In this document: positions 10,016 to 62,094 of the stretch, piece by piece | How the letters are laid out: each line of letters starts with the position of its first letter | How positions within the stretch are numbered: the stretch's first letter is position 1 | Sequence record: KP869112 | Origin: Escherichia coli O157 typing phage 14 | DNA: 64,000 bases | Reading direction: 5' to 3' (one strand) | Notes under the pieces: generated by a model | What the model saw: the letters and a program-made list of their open reading frames with translations, nothing else | Told to the model about the DNA's origin: nothing | Databases searched by the model: none | Made by a program: the position numbers and the translations under genes

Positions 10016-10022
10016 AAAAAGG

Positions 10023-10119
10023 TGCTAGGTGATGGAATCGAACCACCTATGTATTCAACGACTACCTCGTCTATTTTCAGGATTAAAAATCCTCGCCCTT
10101 GCCAAAGGGCTTACCTAGC
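10023..10119 (-). tRNA. atypical tRNA-like gene (Lys-like UUU anticodon loop, 29-nt variable region)
   Basis: Perfect 7-bp acceptor GCTAGGT/ACCTAGC, D-arm GCCC-TTTGGCAA-GGGC, T-arm GGTGG-TTCGATT-CCATC; anticodon arm GAGGA-UUUUUAA-UCCUG (G-G mismatch at 27-43). About 29 nt sit between anticodon and T stems, including an ACGA/TCGT hairpin. No complete encoded CCA. Confidence 0.5.
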
Positions 10120-11023: not shown

Positions 11024-11367
11024 GTTTCCTCCATTATCACGTGATAGGTGGATTTTATCATAGCAAATACTGATTGTCAAGTTCGCCGCAGGGTGGTATT
11101 CCCTGCGACTTGTCCAGCGTCCTGGACCAGCAAGACCCAACAAGTGGGTTACCAGAGCCCATTACCGCGCTTTGGCTAGACCTTATTACAGGTTGGCTGG
11201 GGTCACATCGTCATGTGCTGGCTGCCCCTACCATTTTAAGTGTGGTGCACTATCAAGCCCTCTAAGGGGAACTCAGACTTCTCCGAACCCTGTTTCAAAG
11301 CATCCGGAGATAAAGCCATCAAATTCATCTTTAAATTGGATATTCATCATGATACACGAAAACAACC

Positions 11368-11686: not shown

Positions 11687-11896
11687 TCAACAGATTCCGG
11701 CCTTATCCCTCCTGTCTGCATATTCTTTAATCGCAACCTCATCTGCATTGGTTACTAAATCTTCAAAGTAACTCTCAAGCTCCTCGTCAATGTCAGGAAA
11801 CCAACTCTTTTTCCTGTCAGTGTGAATAGCAGACTTGTTGAATTTATTACAGTTCTTTGCTACCGGATTGTTCATTAATCGCCCCTCAGCGTTCAT
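11687..11896 (-). CDS. hypothetical protein
   Basis: 69-aa minus-strand ORF; no motif recognised. Confidence 0.3.
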   Translation of the reverse strand: MNAEGRLMNNPVAKNCNKFNKSAIHTDRKKSWFPDIDEELESYFEDLVTNADEVAIKEYADRRDKAGIC

Positions 11897-12464
11897 AGTA
11901 AATCTTATTTAACATTACCTCATCCTTTGCAGAAAGGATATCAAGATATGCATCACCAAATCTTCCTGCAACAACCTCTGCATGATACATCACTTCGTTA
12001 ACATCGTCAAGAGTGATAACCGGATGACCATATCTTTCTGAATATTGTCTCAGGGTGCGATGTAACGAGTCGTCATCATATGCAGACTTTTTAATATCAC
12101 AAACACGACGAATAGCCTTGATGTCGAAAAAACCTGTGCGATACCACCCAAGAAAAAGGTTTCGTGCAGTGTCAACATCTACATTGATACCATCAAGAAC
12201 CTTATCTACAAGATAGCTGTCATCCTTTGGACCAGCGTCCTTAGTGCGAATGTAGTTGCCATCTTTTCCAGGCGATAGCTCCTTCTCATCCCCAACCTGC
12301 ATGCCATCATTTGGCGGTGTTAGCCACTTATCCGGATGCTTACGATCACGAGCGTTAGAATGATTACGCTGGAAACCGGGCTTCCACTTGAAAGTTTTCT
12401 CCATCTGTTCTTCATTCTGATAACGTTTTGCAATCTTTTCACGGTCATCTTTGCGTGAACCCAT
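11886..12464 (-). CDS. hypothetical protein
   Basis: 192-aa ORF downstream of the 700-bp non-coding block; no motif recognised. Confidence 0.45.
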   Translation of the reverse strand: MGSRKDDREKIAKRYQNEEQMEKTFKWKPGFQRNHSNARDRKHPDKWLTPPNDGMQVGDEKELSPGKDGNYIRTKDAGPKDDSYLVDKVLDGINVDVDTARNLFLGWYRTGFFDIKAIRRVCDIKKSAYDDDSLHRTLRQYSERYGHPVITLDDVNEVMYHAEVVAGRFGDAYLDILSAKDEVMLNKIYYER

Positions 12465-12968
12465 AGCTGCCTCCTCTTCAAGTTATAGAAAAACTCACTG
12501 TATCGCTTTGTAACGAGCTTTTCTATCAAACTGGTGCGATTGCCTTACCTGGTATAGTTTATATAGCTGTGGGGCTATTTAGGGGCCTCCTTGTCCGTTT
12601 CCACACATAAACTTTATCCAAACTCGCGCGGGAGACTCTTAACCGACTCCTTACGGCGCTGGCAAGCTTTCGTCGGTGGTCCACATTAGTGCTCGGCCTT
12701 TGGCCTGCGCTATCGCTTCGCTCCCACACATGTTAACATACCTGCATGTATGCACTTCTGTTATTGTGTGCACTATGGAGGCCCGGCATCTCGCCCCTCG
12801 TAGGCGAGTGCCAATGAAGGGCCGACACTATCCATAGTAAGCAATAAATTTAAAACATGGTACTTAGGATCTAGTATATTCTACATAAGTTAAGTATATG
12901 TACTTTAGTACCATAAGTACTAGATCTTTTATTTTTTATTATTTAGTTATTTTAGTTATATTCTTTAT

Positions 12969-13093
12969 GTGTCCGTATCACGGACAGTTAGTGTCCGTAT
13001 TACGGGCAGATGTGTCCGCGTGACGGACAGTAGTGTCCGTATTACGGGCAGATGTGTCCGCGTGACGGACAGTGGTGTCCGTATCACGGACAG
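12969..13093. repeat. array of six 19-bp palindromic repeats (iteron/operator-like)
   Basis: Units at 12969, 12991, 13012, 13033, 13054 and 13075 with 21-22 bp period. Three variants: A gtgtccgtatcacggacag, B gtgtccgtattacgggcag, C gtgtccgcgtgacggacag, in order A-B-C-B-C-A. Each unit is an inverted repeat (TGTCCG...CGGACA). An AT-rich stretch flanks it at 12923-12968. Confidence 0.85.
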
Positions 13094-13167
13094 TTGATAG
13101 CTTCTGTCCCATATCGAACATAAAACATACGAATCCTTATAGTACAGATATTTAAGTTTTTACTGGT

Positions 13168-13518
13168 CTAACCAGTTGTTGACATTCGAATAACTTCTTC
13201 TGGTGGCAAAACTTTGGAAAATGTGCATCTTTTACCTCTCCCCTGTGTGGATGTTTCAACCACTCCTGCACATTCTAAAGTTTTAACGCACGCTGCTGCT
13301 TTTGTTTTCTTTATCCCAACATCTGCTGCAATTTTCCTTGTGCTGGGTGTGAAGCGTGAATTTCCTCCAAGTTTATACCAGTTGTGCAGGTAGCAGTATA
13401 CGATCTTGTCATACAAGTCAAGAACAACAACCTCCCCAGTTGTGTCATTCAAAACTTTTGACATAGACAGTATTTCAAGGGGGACTTTAAGATATAGCAG
13501 CTTATCCCCATCTTTCAT
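13168..13518 (-). CDS. hypothetical protein, possible winged-helix DNA-binding protein
   Basis: 116 aa; segment STRKIAADVGIKKTKAAACVKTLECAGVV looks like a helix-turn-helix. Sits beside the repeat array. Confidence 0.35.
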   Translation of the reverse strand: MKDGDKLLYLKVPLEILSMSKVLNDTTGEVVVLDLYDKIVYCYLHNWYKLGGNSRFTPSTRKIAADVGIKKTKAAACVKTLECAGVVETSTQGRGKRCTFSKVLPPEEVIRMSTTG

Positions 13519-13565
13519 ATCTCCTGATTCTCCTTGTGTGGCAATTTTCTTTAAAATAGCAGGGA

Positions 13566-14120
13566 TTACTCCCCGCTGTCAATAGCAAAACTCATTGCAA
13601 TACGGTATGCCTCTTCTAATGGTAAGAGTCTCCCCCACACATCCCAACCGACATCAAGCTGCCTGCCAAACAACTGTTGTGTGGTTCCGTGAGCATGACC
13701 GAACAGTTGGACTGATCCGTGAGGCTTTCTGTTCCACTTTGCAAATTGGTAATGGCTCATACAGATCAAATTCTTGTTGTGGCGAAGCTCGTAATAATCT
13801 ACAACCTCGTGATAGAACTCTTTCATAATTCTGACAGTCGTCCTTGTGTCATGGTTGCCACGAACAAGAATAATATGTCCGTTCAACATATTTAGAATAT
13901 CTGGAAGTAATTTGTTGATATTCTTATCATTAGTGCACGCAATATCTCCCAAGTGGAACACAGTGTCTGCAGGTGACACAACAGAGTTCCACTCGGCGAT
14001 GATTCCCGCATTCATACTGTCAAGATTGTGATCATACTGAGATCTGTGTTTTTGACATGAATCAAACTCCATGACCCGCTGGTGGAGAAAGTGTGTGTCG
14101 CTTGTTACAAAGTATTTCAT
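13566..14120 (-). CDS. calcineurin-like metallophosphoesterase (candidate RNA-end healing phosphatase)
   Basis: Motifs SDTHF, HLGDIA, GNHD and FGHAHG in the order typical of binuclear metallophosphoesterases; start at ATG 14120, just after the kinase stop. Confidence 0.65.
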   Translation of the reverse strand: MKYFVTSDTHFLHQRVMEFDSCQKHRSQYDHNLDSMNAGIIAEWNSVVSPADTVFHLGDIACTNDKNINKLLPDILNMLNGHIILVRGNHDTRTTVRIMKEFYHEVVDYYELRHNKNLICMSHYQFAKWNRKPHGSVQLFGHAHGTTQQLFGRQLDVGWDVWGRLLPLEEAYRIAMSFAIDSGE

Positions 14121-51567: not shown

Positions 51568-51592
51568 CAAAATATCAAATTTAAGACACCTA

Positions 51593-51618
51593 GGACGCTC
51601 TGTGGCGTCCTTTTCTTT
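51593..51618 (+). terminator. rho-independent terminator
   Basis: GGACGC-tctgtg-GCGTCC followed by TTTTCTTT. Confidence 0.55.
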
Positions 51619-51780
51619 ATCTGGTGCACGATTGCATACCTTTGACAGATAATCTCATTACAGAGCGTTTAAGAGCTTCCTACAAACAAATCTCTCTTTC
51701 GAGCGTAGCGAGAACGCACGTCCGTTTTGACCCAAATCACCATACGCTCGGATTTTAACCAAACCCTCGCGGCGTTTCTA

Positions 51781-51809
51781 TTGACACATTACCGCTCCAG
51801 TGATAATAT
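51781..51809 (+). promoter_or_regulatory. sigma70-like promoter
   Basis: TTGACA, 17-nt spacer, TAATAT. Confidence 0.5.
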
Positions 51810-51841
51810 CCACACATAGTTTGTAGAATATGGGGTACACT

Positions 51842-51931
51842 ATGAGAACATTGTCCGAAGTTTTGGTGGTGATCCTGATGATCATTACGTCCATAGCGGC
51901 TGTTGCCGGAATACTCACGGGTGGAACATGA
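51842..51931 (+). CDS. small hydrophobic peptide (29 aa)
   Basis: MRTLSEVLVVILMIITSIAAVAGILTGGT; downstream of the promoter; stop overlaps the next ORF start. Confidence 0.3.
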   Translation: MRTLSEVLVVILMIITSIAAVAGILTGGT

Positions 51932-52140
51932 TAAACACACATGCATCTGAAGAGACATCCAAAGGAGTGACTATATGTCCCTTGGCTGAGCCAGTGAAAG
52001 AGGAAAACTTCGATTCTGAAGATTCTCCATCTTCGCTCCAGGTAGATCCTGAGGCTGATGACCTAACGTGGGAAGACATCGTAGATATCTGGTTCTCTAT
52101 TATGCCTGAGCACGAAGAGTTCAGGGGTGGTAGACTATGA
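51928..52140 (+). CDS. hypothetical acidic protein
   Basis: 70-aa ORF. Confidence 0.3.
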   Translation: MINTHASEETSKGVTICPLAEPVKEENFDSEDSPSSLQVDPEADDLTWEDIVDIWFSIMPEHEEFRGGRL

Positions 52141-52261
52141 AGCACCGAGCCCACACAGGTTCCTCATGCTAAAGCATGGCCTGAAGAGGCAAACGTGCAT
52201 AATTCCTGTACATTGGGACGTATAAAACCCTGTTCACATTCTCATTTCCAGAGGAGATTTC

Positions 52262-52477
52262 ATGAAGATAGAAATATTTGGTGGAGCTGACAATACTCGT
52301 GGCCTGATTTACCTTGAATTCGATGAATCATACCTGCCAGAGGTGTTAAATATGGACTCTGTTGCTGATGCTTTGGGAGTAAGTCCTAAAGATCTCTACT
52401 CTGGTGCTGAGATTGATGGTTGGGAGGAGACCATGAACATTGATTTCAGTGAAGTAGGTGATGAACCACTGGACTGA
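52262..52477 (+). CDS. hypothetical acidic protein
   Basis: 71-aa ORF with GGAG SD; last plus-strand gene before the non-coding region. Confidence 0.35.
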   Translation: MKIEIFGGADNTRGLIYLEFDESYLPEVLNMDSVADALGVSPKDLYSGAEIDGWEETMNIDFSEVGDEPLD

Positions 52478-54020
52478 CACACAATTAGCTACCCGGCTAA
52501 AGTGCTGGGAGCACCTATAACACATCTTTCAACTAAATTTCCTACCACCACAATCACTTACCTCCCACACATGACTGTTTGCTTGTTTAGTGAGCAGTCA
52601 TGCCTTGACATTCTTGCCTATCCTGATAAAATTAAGTTCTTCTCTTTTCTTTTACCGAGTAATTCGGGTTTTCTGTTCTCTTCGGTTTGAAGGGGTATGG
52701 AGATACACCTGAGTGAACAGGGTGAACAACCGAACCATTGGCTATGGCATTAGCATGGCGAAGCGGACGGGTGACGAAAGAGGGGCCGGAGGACACCAGT
52801 CACTGCCATATGATATATAGGTGATAACCTGAAGAGTCTGAATAAGTGTTTAAGTACCAGTCAGAGGAAAAGGTGAATGGTAGCCGAAGGGGGAGGGGGG
52901 TTTCTTGTATCTTTAATTTGTATATTATGTATACACTTGTAAACCAACACCATCTGAATTTGCTTACCACACAAAGCGGATAGAGACAAATATTACCTAT
53001 TAAACTTGAATTATTTATAGAAAATACCACAACACCACTTAAGTCTTTGATTTTACACATAAATCCTACAGATATTCACCCTCCATATTTAACATACTTG
53101 TAACATATCTATACCCAACCTGTCTGATCAACTCACCCAACTACATCCTCCATATTTCCCCTGTCTGTACTACCCCTGCCCAGCCGGGAGTCCCGTCATA
53201 TCTGGCTTTCCAGCAAATATCACACCCACAAATATCATTGCCTGAAGAGGGTTTCATCCCATAATACATGCCTTACCTGAAGAGCGCTTCATACACCACG
53301 TAAATTTTTTAATTGACCTGCAATTTTCCCGTCATGACCCCCTGCCCCGCCAGAGAGGTTGACTTTTCCCACACAGACCTGAAGAGCCAGCCAGAAATAT
53401 CTGAACAGGTCCAGTTATACCACGATTTTGACCTGACCGACAGGAGTGCCTCCCTGTCAGGAGCCGGTAGCGACTGGAGTGCTGCCAGGCGGACGAAATG
53501 GGAATACTTCTCATTCTTATAATAATTCTCAAATATCGAGGCAGTGAGGCAAATTAATAGGTGAGGCCGTTCACACAGTGGCACAACATTTGCAACCTAT
53601 CTTGTGGGGTGAATGAGAATACCTATCATTGTGAGAATAGTTATCATTACGGGCAATTTAACATAATACCCATTATGCGCACCACTGGCGATACATACAG
53701 GGGTTGATAACATGAGTTACTGTTTACGCACATAACAATTATATTTCTTACTATTTGTGTGGGATATAGTTAGCAGCCGATAGATTAGATATTGACCTGT
53801 AGACTTCCAACCGTCTAGACGTCTAAACGCCCACACAACAAGGCTTATACATACATCACTGAATGTAAACAGGACCGCAAAAATGCTACCATACAAGCTT
53901 GTAAATTTTTCATGCAGCACTTGACAAAGAGGAGGAAAACTTGTCTGACACACTGGGCACAACATAACATACTGCAGCACAATATGACACAATAACGACT
54001 GTTATTATTTCATGTTTCAC

Positions 54021-54080
54021 TGTTCACGTATAGATTGTTCCCGCATAGACTGTTTACGCCTGGATAGTTCACGCATAGAT
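54021..54080. repeat. four tandem ~15-bp direct repeats
   Basis: tgttcacgtatagat, tgttcccgcatagac, tgtttacgcctggatag, ttcacgcatagat in tandem. Confidence 0.7.
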
Positions 54081-54086
54081 GATAAG

Positions 54087-54317
54087 CCATGCCATTCGTT
54101 TGCATGACAATAATTAACTTGTTTACAATAGATGACATAATATAAAAGCAGGGCAACTATTAGAAGATCATAGTTGCCTTGCTTGTTATGTCATGATTAA
54201 CTAAATACAAGGCAACTATGATCTGATTAATAGATTGCAGACAAACTATCACGGGGGTGATTGTTACTGCTTTTATATTATGTCGCGACTCCGTCGCGCC
54301 ATGCCATTCGTTTGCAT
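54087..54317. repeat. nested repeat structure: 19-bp direct repeats flanking a 17-bp inverted-repeat pair
   Basis: ccatgccattcgtttgcat at 54087-54105 and 54299-54317; acataatataaaagcag at 54135-54151 with exact reverse complement at 54268-54284; internal palindrome ggcaactat...atagttgcc (54151-54177). Confidence 0.8.
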
Positions 54318-54981
54318 AGTTGCCTTATTGTTACAGATAAAATAATTGTATTGTTAATTATTTCTTATCTTTCTATTAGTCATCTAATGATTTCAGTTAG
54401 TATAGTAACGTACAGTAAACATTAGACGACTAAAGATTTCTCTGCTTATAATAACCTAACGTGACAATTCCGGACTGTTTACGAAAAATGTTGACACCTG
54501 AGCTGATTTATGTTATGCAGTTTACACGAATAATTATTTTATGCAGGTATTGACTATTCTGTTATTCTATGGTTGGAATAAATACTTAGCAGGCTATAGA
54601 ATGGTGAGCGTACGTAAATTCTAAGATCTGGCGGCTATAGTTATGCCCGATTTTTCACGTAGAAAACGCTTTTATGAGTGTGTAAGTGTATGACTTATAA
54701 AGATTTTTAGTTGTTGACAAGATACTGAAGATGTGCATCAGGTTAAATTTTGTGCAATAGCGGCATTACGTGCAATTTTGGAAGGAAAAACGTGTAAAAA
54801 ATGGCGCTGCTACCACACAATGAAAGATTATGCAATAGCTATTTTACATGTATGTTTGTACAGTGGTGGTAATTGATGGCTTGTCGATTATTCCACTTGC
54901 CAGGCTGGGCCGTTTGTGGTAGGGGAAATACAGACAAAAAGAAAGGGGCCTTTTAAAGCCCCTGATAGTTTAGTTAATAAA

Positions 54982-61820: not shown

Positions 61821-62094
61821 NNNNNNNNNNNNNNNNNNNNNNNNNNNNNNNNNNNNNNNNNNNNNNNNNNNNNNNNNNNNNNNNNNNNNNNNNNNNNNNN
61901 NNNNNNNNNNNNNNNNNNNNNNNNNNNNNNNNNNNNNNNNNNNNNNNNNNNNNNNNNNNNNNNNNNNNNNNNNNNNNNNNNNNNNNNNNNNNNNNNNNNN
62001 NNNNNNNNNNNNNNNNNNNNNNNNNNNNNNNNNNNNNNNNNNNNNNNNNNNNNNNNNNNNNNNNNNNNNNNNNNNNNNNNNNNNNNNNNNNNNN
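61821..62094. other. assembly gap (run of 274 N)
   Basis: Uninterrupted N characters. Confidence 0.99.

Follow-up and report, generated by a model that had tools for sequence, protein, structure and literature searches.

In a 64,000-nucleotide (nt) stretch of Escherichia coli O157 typing phage 14 (sequence record KP869112; the whole stretch is referred to here as the window), a gene-free block of 700 bases (12465-13167) carries an array of palindromic repeats beside a gene for a 116-amino-acid (aa) protein with an initiator-like DNA-binding domain. As judged from sequence comparison, this block has about an even chance of being an iteron-type replication origin, the cis-acting part of a replication module confined to the genus Vequintavirus. 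The proposed type is an iteron origin whose RepA_N-like binder has been pared down to the DNA-binding domain. The initial annotation had suggested an origin from the layout of the block, and to this hypothesis the homology of the neighboring protein now adds support. In its favor, the neighboring protein is initiator-like and the repeat motif is unique in the phage rV5; on the other side, the protein lacks the C-terminal domain of known initiators, and a transcriptional role for it is conceivable. The same block contains a second element, a GC-rich hairpin array whose fold is shown by compensatory changes between aligned sequences to be under selection.

The window phage is a Vequintavirus, an rV5-like myovirus of E. 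coli. Searches with the block and its flanks gave 118 phage records with 87-97% identity. Every one is an rV5-like E. coli myovirus of this genus, 18 of them deposited as Campylobacter phages. The protein gene, the repeats and the hairpin array occur together in all 118 records that have any of them, and in rV5 itself the block lies at 64665-65307. The rV5-like phages are common, are used widely in phage therapy and biocontrol, and are part of the BASEL reference collection. Their replication origin has so far been undefined, and the block offers a precise candidate consisting of a 17-bp site, a 116-aa protein and a 46-bp unwinding stretch. If the candidate is true, a RepA_N / PLE-RepA initiator domain works in lytic coliphages without its usual C-terminal domain.

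Repeats, A/T-rich stretch and winged-helix protein

The features named in the initial annotation are all present at the coordinates given there. Six palindromic repeats were found at 12969-13095 with start-to-start spacings of 22, 21, 21, 21 and 21 bp. They are arranged in the order A-B-C-B-C-A that had been described before, the repeats starting at 12969/13075, 12991/13033 and 13012/13054 forming identical pairs. Their core is a 17-bp palindrome, TGTCCG-N5-CGGACA, which recurs with a period of 21-22 bp at 12970-12986, 12992-13008, 13013-13029, 13034-13050, 13055-13071 and 13076-13092, with no strand assigned. At up to two mismatches the core motif has nine matches in the window against 1.21 expected, a number reached by none of 100 shuffles, and all six window matches with no or one mismatch lie inside the array. 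Across the complete 137,947-bp genome of rV5, only the four array sites match the motif with one mismatch or none. The repeats could have been a promoter-operator unit shared with other genes, but the motif is unique to the array in the rV5 genome, and this objection therefore fails to refute an origin. A dispersed operator is likewise ruled out by the single-locus occurrence of the motif in the whole rV5 genome.

The number of copies varies among relatives, with four (A-B-C-A) in most of them, three in CarlMeissner, two in navn and six in the window, where a recent 42-bp duplication of B-C gave rise to the additional copies; among the 60 matches listed, none spans as much sequence as the window. 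Logan short-read contigs of related phages (L004, L009 and L010) end inside or just past the repeat array, indicating a recurrent assembly breakpoint, so that copy numbers taken from draft genomes may be unreliable. Conservation within the block was judged on an alignment of 14 relatives. The outer hexamers are the same in nearly all copies and lineages except for one recurring G-for-A variant in copy B, and this constancy extends to the Aya clade, in which identity of the winged-helix protein drops to 89%. Copies and lineages differ in the five nucleotides at the center (TATCA, TATTA and CGTGA). Constant half-sites around variable centers are the pattern expected of a dimeric protein that reads two half-sites. 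The two flanking genes are read on the minus strand, which places the repeats beyond the 3' end of the helix-turn-helix gene, 75 bp past its stop codon, and not in its promoter.

The repeats adjoin an A/T-rich stretch (12923-12968, no strand), a candidate DNA-unwinding element in which 41 of 46 bases are A or T. With its five G/C bases, the stretch is the 46-mer of lowest GC content in the window, a run of 274 N (masked or unassembled) at 61821-62094 aside. It begins with GATCTTTTATTTT, is nearly invariant across lineages, and at its start has the only exact GATCTnTTnTTTT, an oriC-type 13-mer, in the window. The inverted repeat noticed earlier in the neighboring DNA is a 9-bp pair, GATCTAGTA / TACTAGATC, at 12868-12876 and 12918-12926, whose arms are complementary at all nine positions. 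It belongs to a conserved A/T-rich region of nested inverted repeats (12843-12937, no strand), which also holds ATGGTACTTA-type arms, four GTAC sites and two GATC sites and is almost free of substitutions, the Aya clade included.

The gene next to the repeats (13168-13518, minus strand), a homologue of rV5 open reading frame (ORF) 79, had been noted for a helix-turn-helix-like segment, and its 116-aa product indeed has a winged-helix domain. The protein matches PHROG 12838, 'replication initiation protein', with an E-value of 5e-80, and in the same database three larger initiator families align to it through their N-terminal parts. GenBank records name it 'putative transcriptional regulator' (most records) or 'replication initiation protein'. 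Its best sequence match in the PDB is 4RO3 (E 3e-6). An AlphaFold2 (AF2) model, which was built from an alignment of 15 sequences including distant homologues, has a single domain with a predicted local distance difference test (pLDDT) score of 75 and a predicted template modeling (pTM) score of 0.74; prediction from the single sequence reached a pLDDT of only 39. When the model was compared with the PDB using Foldseek, 4RO3 again came first (E 1.3e-5, TM 0.62, identity ~28%), followed by the N-terminal domains of the RepA_N initiators 4PQL, 4PT7, 5KBJ and 4PTA, which align over ~105 columns with E-values of 6e-4 to 9e-3. Regulators of the CodY, LexA and MarR types align only over the ~70-column winged-helix core, with E-values of at least 1e-2. 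The modeled protein thus resembles the extended winged-helix DNA-binding fold of RepA_N-type initiators, of which it would represent the N-terminal domain only.

The structure 4RO3 is the N-terminal DNA-binding domain of RepA from the Vibrio cholerae satellite PLE (Barth et al., NAR 2020, PMC7145576). PLE RepA binds semi-palindromic iterons and drives replication, as shown by electrophoretic mobility shift assays and genetics, and PLE replication depends on the replisome of the helper phage, not on host DnaA (PMC7145576). Among solved structures, none is closer to the 116-aa protein than PLE RepA in either sequence or fold, and the PLE origin also consists of semi-palindromic direct repeats in a non-coding region. 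The two systems differ in that PLE RepA has a C-terminal domain and the window protein does not, PLE is a satellite whereas the window belongs to a lytic phage, and the iteron sequences are unrelated. The staphylococcal RepA_N initiators of pSK41 and pTZ2162 bind semi-palindromic iterons as dimers, and RepA_N iterons typically converge on a poly-A tract (PMC7145576). These plasmid initiators (4PQL, 4PT7, 4PTA and 5KBJ) have the extended winged helix in common with the window protein over ~105 columns; the window protein is not matched by the Pfam RepA_N model and lacks their C-terminal domain. The C-terminal domain of RepA_N initiators is thought to recruit other factors, and many RepA_N plasmids carry their iterons within the rep gene itself. 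The origin of phage lambda has four ~19-bp inverted-repeat iterons, each bound by a dimer of O, followed by an A/T-rich region of ~40 bp; it lies inside gene O, is activated by read-through transcription, and the C-terminal domain of O recruits P-DnaB. The layout in the window, with four ancestral palindromes of 17-19 bp and a 46-bp A/T-rich stretch, is nearly equal to that of lambda ori, but the window site is downstream of the gene and the protein consists of the N-terminal domain only. Using Pfam, no Phage_rep_O similarity was detected in the 116-aa protein.

Relatives of the protein are confined to the genus, except for a small family of phage proteins of 182-217 aa at ~30% identity, and a protein search of IMG/VR returned no close relatives. 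In two phage contigs, distant homologues of 182-195 aa directly follow divergent intergenic regions of ~500 bp (L245, 4135-5588; L244, 4140-5549). One distant-homologue locus lies between genes for a primase-helicase and a DNA polymerase A, and its intergenic region has three or four CTCGCAGGTACAG-type repeats.

A candidate origin and its alternatives

Along the direction of transcription, the winged-helix gene is followed by a 75-nt spacer, the repeats, the A/T-rich stretch, the inverted-repeat region, the GC-rich segment and the ribosome-binding site of the ORF77 homologue. The spacer between the stop codon and the first repeat (13094-13167, no strand) includes the most variable part of the block (13095-13115). 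A consensus scan found a sigma-70-type promoter, TTGACA-18-TATTTT with TG, upstream of the winged-helix gene (13553-13582, minus strand). The same site is annotated as P76 in rV5, and it is the likely source of leftward transcription through the block. No terminator-like site was found in 12300-13700, and neither the scan nor manual inspection showed a sigma-70 promoter or an intrinsic terminator inside the block. Directly downstream of the hairpin array lies a 192-aa gene with no assigned function (11886-12464, minus strand; rV5 ORF77 homologue, PHROG 12226), whose product has no match in Pfam or the PDB. Its leader (12465-12531, minus strand) contains a 12-bp A/U-rich hairpin (12485-12496 with 12515-12526) and a GAGGAGG ribosome-binding site. 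The ORF77 product was considered as a detached initiator C-terminal domain, and this was ruled out since it is unrelated to the C-terminal extensions of the longer homologues of the winged-helix protein.

If the block is an origin, the 116-aa protein, expressed early, would act as a stand-alone RepA_N / PLE-RepA DNA-binding domain, and its dimers would occupy the palindromic 17-bp sites TGTCCG-N5-CGGACA. Since the sites are two helical turns apart, the bound dimers are proposed to lie all on one face of the DNA. The resulting nucleoprotein array would strain and open the adjoining 46-bp A/T-rich stretch (12923-12968), which could then serve as the loading place for the T7-gp4-like primase-helicase and the DNA polymerase of the phage. 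Read-through transcription from the promoter upstream of the gene may aid this opening and would also yield the RNA of the hairpin array, which might act at or near the origin or on the downstream genes.

The block has the layout of an iteron origin, with at least three phased direct repeats, an adjoining A/T-rich element and an adjoining candidate initiator gene. In addition, the repeats lie 1.5 kb from a switch in transcription direction (divergent) and in GC skew. The authors of the rV5 genome listed this switch while seeking the origin and could not define the latter (PMC3606486). No later literature defining an rV5-like origin was found.

Several observations weigh against an origin at this place. 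With regard to the protein, its matches to DUF6945 (PF22182; 27.4 bits, cut-off 28) and HTH_36 (24.5 bits, cut-off 25) fall just below threshold, and Pfam RepA_N (PF06970) does not match it at E <= 1. Its ORF ends without the C-terminal domain of known initiators, while the 182-217-aa homologues carry a C-terminal extension, and no helicase-loading partner was identified for it. No comparable repeat array was found near the distant homologues, one locus having three or four short repeats only. With regard to the site, the repeats do not converge on a poly-A tract, unlike typical RepA_N iterons. In 12440-13200, consensus sites for DnaA (TTWTNCACA) and IHF (WATCAANNNNTTR) are absent, and a single relaxed DnaA-like site in this interval is not kept in relatives. 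The GC skew is confounded with transcription direction. Moreover, the module is absent at the syntenic place in other Vequintavirinae genera, in which gene order differs, and it is thus not a conserved feature of the subfamily. A second repeat-rich non-coding region of the window (~51.6-54.95 kb) could equally be an origin.

A role of the block in gene regulation appears possible, though we hold it rather improbable as the sole explanation. The winged-helix protein would then be a regulator that coats the repeats 3' of its own gene, as an operator or roadblock, and tunes read-through into the hairpin array, ORF77-74 and the tRNA cluster; in a variant, it would repress an unrecognized promoter in the conserved A/T-rich region. 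Read-through is the default here, because neither a terminator nor a sigma-70 promoter lies between the winged-helix gene and the downstream genes, and the repeats are themselves inside the transcription unit. That the protein is a DNA-binding domain only would suit a repressor, winged-helix repressors are also among its fold matches, and the A/T-rich inverted-repeat region is kept in sequence and not merely in composition, as expected for a binding site of a protein or polymerase. The top matches in both sequence and fold are, however, DNA-binding domains of initiators and not regulators. Four to six phased sites beside an extreme A/T-rich stretch exceed the usual need of an operator, and the motif occurs at no other place in the rV5 genome, which speaks against the operator of a regulon. 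The roles of origin and operator are compatible and not exclusive, as many initiators also autoregulate.

It is very improbable that the 21-nt repeats act as RNA, in the form of expanding and contracting tandem 6-bp hairpins that would serve, for example, as a decoy or antitoxin mimic. Such a role would agree with the copy number of 2-6 among close relatives and with the location of the repeats inside a transcribed region, beside another hairpin array. It also has a precedent in the rV5-like phage PhiTE, which evolved expanding non-coding RNA repeats that defeat ToxIN, its pseudo-ToxI being made of 36-nt units that form pseudoknots mimicking a known antitoxin (PMC3475682). Both cases concern a non-coding tandem repeat of an rV5-like phage whose copy number differs among close relatives. 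The PhiTE locus, however, is elsewhere in the genome, and it has no sequence or Rfam similarity to the window repeats. The unit of 21-22 nt is shorter than the 36-nt ToxI unit and falls outside the ~34-45 nt of ToxI-type tandem units, and no Rfam family matches. In addition, the stems of the repeats are constant in sequence without any compensatory change, which points to sequence-specific recognition, and the period of two helical turns and the neighboring initiator-like protein suit a DNA site.

The hairpin array and the plasmids that share it

The GC-rich segment (~12540-12840) has a GC content of 0.50-0.54 against ~0.42 around it. As had been noted, no ORF of 60 aa or more is present in it, the longest being of 56 aa. 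The earlier proposal of a structured RNA or acquired DNA gained support: the fold is backed by compensatory changes, and the element is common to another family of replicons. Five modules were delimited on the plus strand within the array at 12532-12845 (M0 12532-12607, M1 12625-12685, M2 12686-12722, M3 12731-12775 and M4 12776-12840); the array as a whole is assigned tentatively to the minus strand. In phages and plasmids alike, the hairpins are parted by CCACACA, CCACA or CCCACACA (plus strand), and modules vary in number and kind. The octamer reads CCCACACA on the plus strand and UGUGUGGG on the minus strand, and to our knowledge this punctuating motif has no known counterpart. The z-score of the minimum free energy of the segment against shuffles is -3.06 for the minus strand and -2.22 for the plus strand. 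Nine array homologues gave z-scores from -1.5 to -7.5, with both strands folding well. Another GC-rich gap of the window, between small ORFs at 11090-11300 (53% GC), has a z-score of -0.14 against shuffles and no Rfam match, and is not common to the plasmids.

An Rfam search of the window at the gathering threshold found only tRNAs. At E <= 10 over 12300-13300, only rli43 (24.5 bits against a threshold of 100) and noise were returned, with no family for the array or the repeats. Degenerate tRNA genes were ruled out as the source of the array, no match to the tRNA model being found in 12300-13300 at E <= 10. Protein coding was also rejected. The rV5 'ORF 78' (12559-12729, minus strand, 56 aa) is open in relatives, but its variable columns are spread evenly over codon positions 1, 2 and 3 (9, 8 and 10) and almost every substitution is non-synonymous, which indicates that it is not a gene. 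The homologous segments of the plasmids do not keep the frame.

Because the phage and plasmid copies differ by compensatory base-pair changes, the hairpin fold is shown to be under selection at the level of sequence evolution. Between phage and plasmid, ACCGAC...GTCGGT in M1 is replaced by GCTGCC...GGCAGC, and in M4 GGCA...TGCC is replaced by GTCA...TGAC and CTCGCC...GGCGAG by CTCTCC...GGAGAG. In an alignment of eight distinct sequences, three base pairs of M1 differ at both partners, and 98.6% of cells are paired; none of 500 shuffles reached the observed value, and slid controls gave zero double changes. M4 has one counted compensatory pair and one more that was misaligned by MAFFT. In the most divergent plasmid (CP134895.1), this position is taken by yet another stem, a third one of unrelated sequence, and in M0 the Aya clade adds one compensatory pair within the phages. 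A conserved GCGCGGGAGACTC precedes the M1 hairpin in every array member. It could pair with the base of the M1 hairpin loop as a short pseudoknot, a helix that never varies.

We infer from these sequence patterns that the array is a structured RNA, more likely of the minus strand, which would be co-transcribed with the flanking genes. The minus strand is the one transcribed through the block in the phage. In phage lineages, a number of single substitutions leave G-U when the minus strand is read but A-C when the plus strand is read. Of nine arrays, six have their lower z-score on the minus strand; some plasmid helix ends favor the plus strand, and consensus folding of the phage sequences gives -82.2 and -82.0 kcal/mol for the two strands. 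Firm conclusions on the array are tempered by three points: the covariation comes from two lineages (phage and plasmid) and hence from few independent events, the G-U evidence on the strand is mixed, and no promoter or terminator of the array's own was found in 12300-13700. The array seems to be tied to origin function or to control of downstream genes. As a conserved, covarying non-coding element outside Rfam, it may matter more than the origin.

Searched with a covariance model of M1, 41 viral and related sources yielded no more than the window and one rV5-like contig, and 80 of 120 metagenome loci yielded nothing credible, the best weak match being a phosphotransferase system (PTS) gene. 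Two scans for further arrays were discarded. Matches to a 13-mer-plus-gap pattern in sequence collections (34 viral and 120 metagenome loci) were attributed to chance, and 59 matches from an 18-mer scan of genome contigs came from unrelated bacteria. It was also observed that the phosphoesterase mRNA (minus strand, 13627-13640, GGGAGACUCUUA) is complementary over 12 nt to the M1 motif UAAGAGUCUCCC (12631-12643) on the same transcript. This complementarity was noticed post hoc and may be due to chance.

In DNA searches, parts of the GC-rich segment matched unannotated non-coding DNA of circular E. coli plasmids of 13.2-13.7 kb, and one further record of 39.6 kb carries three copies of the array. 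Six such plasmids, all non-mobilizable, were collected: NZ_CP020521.1 (13,689 bp), CP148565.1, NZ_CP035869.1, NZ_CP043822.1, CP134895.1 and NZ_CP178698.1. Their gene products include a major capsid protein, a tape measure and homologues of rV5 ORF48 (54% identity), ORF56 (48%) and ORF49 (38%), together with a ~300-aa helix-turn-helix Rep-like protein that is weakly similar to initiators; no terminase or portal is encoded. In all six plasmids, the array lies between a leftward operon that holds the Rep-like gene and a region with a G/C-rich palindrome, ATCTATT repeats and obvious iterons. The order of array, A/T- or G/C-rich DNA and iterons is common to plasmids and phage. The TGTCCG-N5-CGGACA sites and the winged-helix protein of the phage are absent from the plasmids, indicating that the array travels independently of that module.

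As the plasmids encode homologues of rV5 structural proteins and carry the array by iterons of their own, we infer that they are candidate satellites, or else degenerate relatives, of rV5-like phages, with the shared array as a candidate point of helper-plasmid interaction. No literature was found on these plasmids or on any satellite of rV5-like phages. The array has thus led to an undescribed phage-plasmid relationship, with rV5-like structural genes on small E. coli plasmids. If the plasmids are satellites of virulent myoviruses, they represent a new kind of phage parasite in E. coli, and the shared array marks the point at which helper and parasite interact.

The position of the array in the 13-kb plasmids recalls the ColE1 RNA II primer and the antisense-controlled leaders of rep mRNAs, which are multi-hairpin RNAs of several hundred nt located by an origin or upstream of a rep operon. 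In contrast to these, the array has no sequence or Rfam relationship with them, and it showed neither a promoter nor an antisense partner nor a primer site of the RNase H type. A more far-reaching reading is doubtful at present. The array would be a new modular RNA class (UGUGUGGG / CCCACACA) common to virulent Vequintavirus and a hitherto unrecognized family of ~13-kb plasmid-borne satellites, acting as the handle that couples replication, expression or packaging of the satellite to the helper, and the 116-aa protein would be the first stand-alone RepA_N-like origin binder of a large lytic coliphage.

The array might alternatively function as DNA, either as a signal for primosome or primase initiation on the displaced strand or as a cis site for packaging or helper-driven replication that the 13-kb plasmids copy so as to exploit rV5-like phages. 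We regard this as unlikely. Consistent with it, iterons and origin-like sequence rich in A/T or G/C directly adjoin the array on phage and plasmids alike, both strands fold well, and the array is the only substantial non-coding similarity between rV5 and the plasmids; the latter encode homologues of rV5 ORF48, ORF56 and the tape measure but lack terminase and portal genes. Compensatory changes would not, however, be needed in a packaging site that works as double-stranded DNA, the terminase genes are ~4 kb away, and the G-U-compatible substitutions suggest RNA over DNA hairpins.

Each plasmid array begins with ATTTAGGTGTGCTATAGGTAC (12104-12124 in NZ_CP020521.1), which is like the SP6 RNA polymerase promoter ATTTAGGTGACACTATAGAAG. 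An SP6-type promoter at this place was rejected, the sequence being one base short of the consensus and rV5 having no phage-type RNA polymerase. The sequence ATTTAGGGG is also present inside module M0 of phage and plasmids.

A second non-coding region and the octamer

The second repeat-rich region of the window (51570-54950) has no ORF longer than 91 aa and corresponds to 104013-106618 of rV5, where no gene is annotated. Small hairpins there are accompanied by five further CCCACACA octamers, and CCTGAAGAG occurs five times. Also present are a G5AG6 tract, GGGGGAGGGGGG at 52890-52901, gtt(t/c)acgc-atagat repeats near 54000-54070 and other repeats. Two short plasmid matches fall in this region, at 51947-52003 and 53514-53537. 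Transcription converges at this region and cumulative GC skew peaks there; a terminus, another origin or an additional RNA locus are possible interpretations.

The octamer CCCACACA occurs 12 times in the window against 1.95 expected, a number reached in none of 100 shuffles, and 21 times in rV5. Its orientation in rV5 is mostly plus between 24 and 105 kb and mostly minus between 105 and 130 kb, irrespective of the direction of transcription.

Elsewhere in the window, the tRNA cluster includes a 99-nt tRNA-like gene (10021-10119), for which ARAGORN gives a 4-base anticodon and Rfam a score of 35.5 bits. In GenBank records it appears as tRNA-OTHER or as tRNA-Lys(TTT), or is missing altogether. 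The tRNA may contain an intron or be unusual in some other way.

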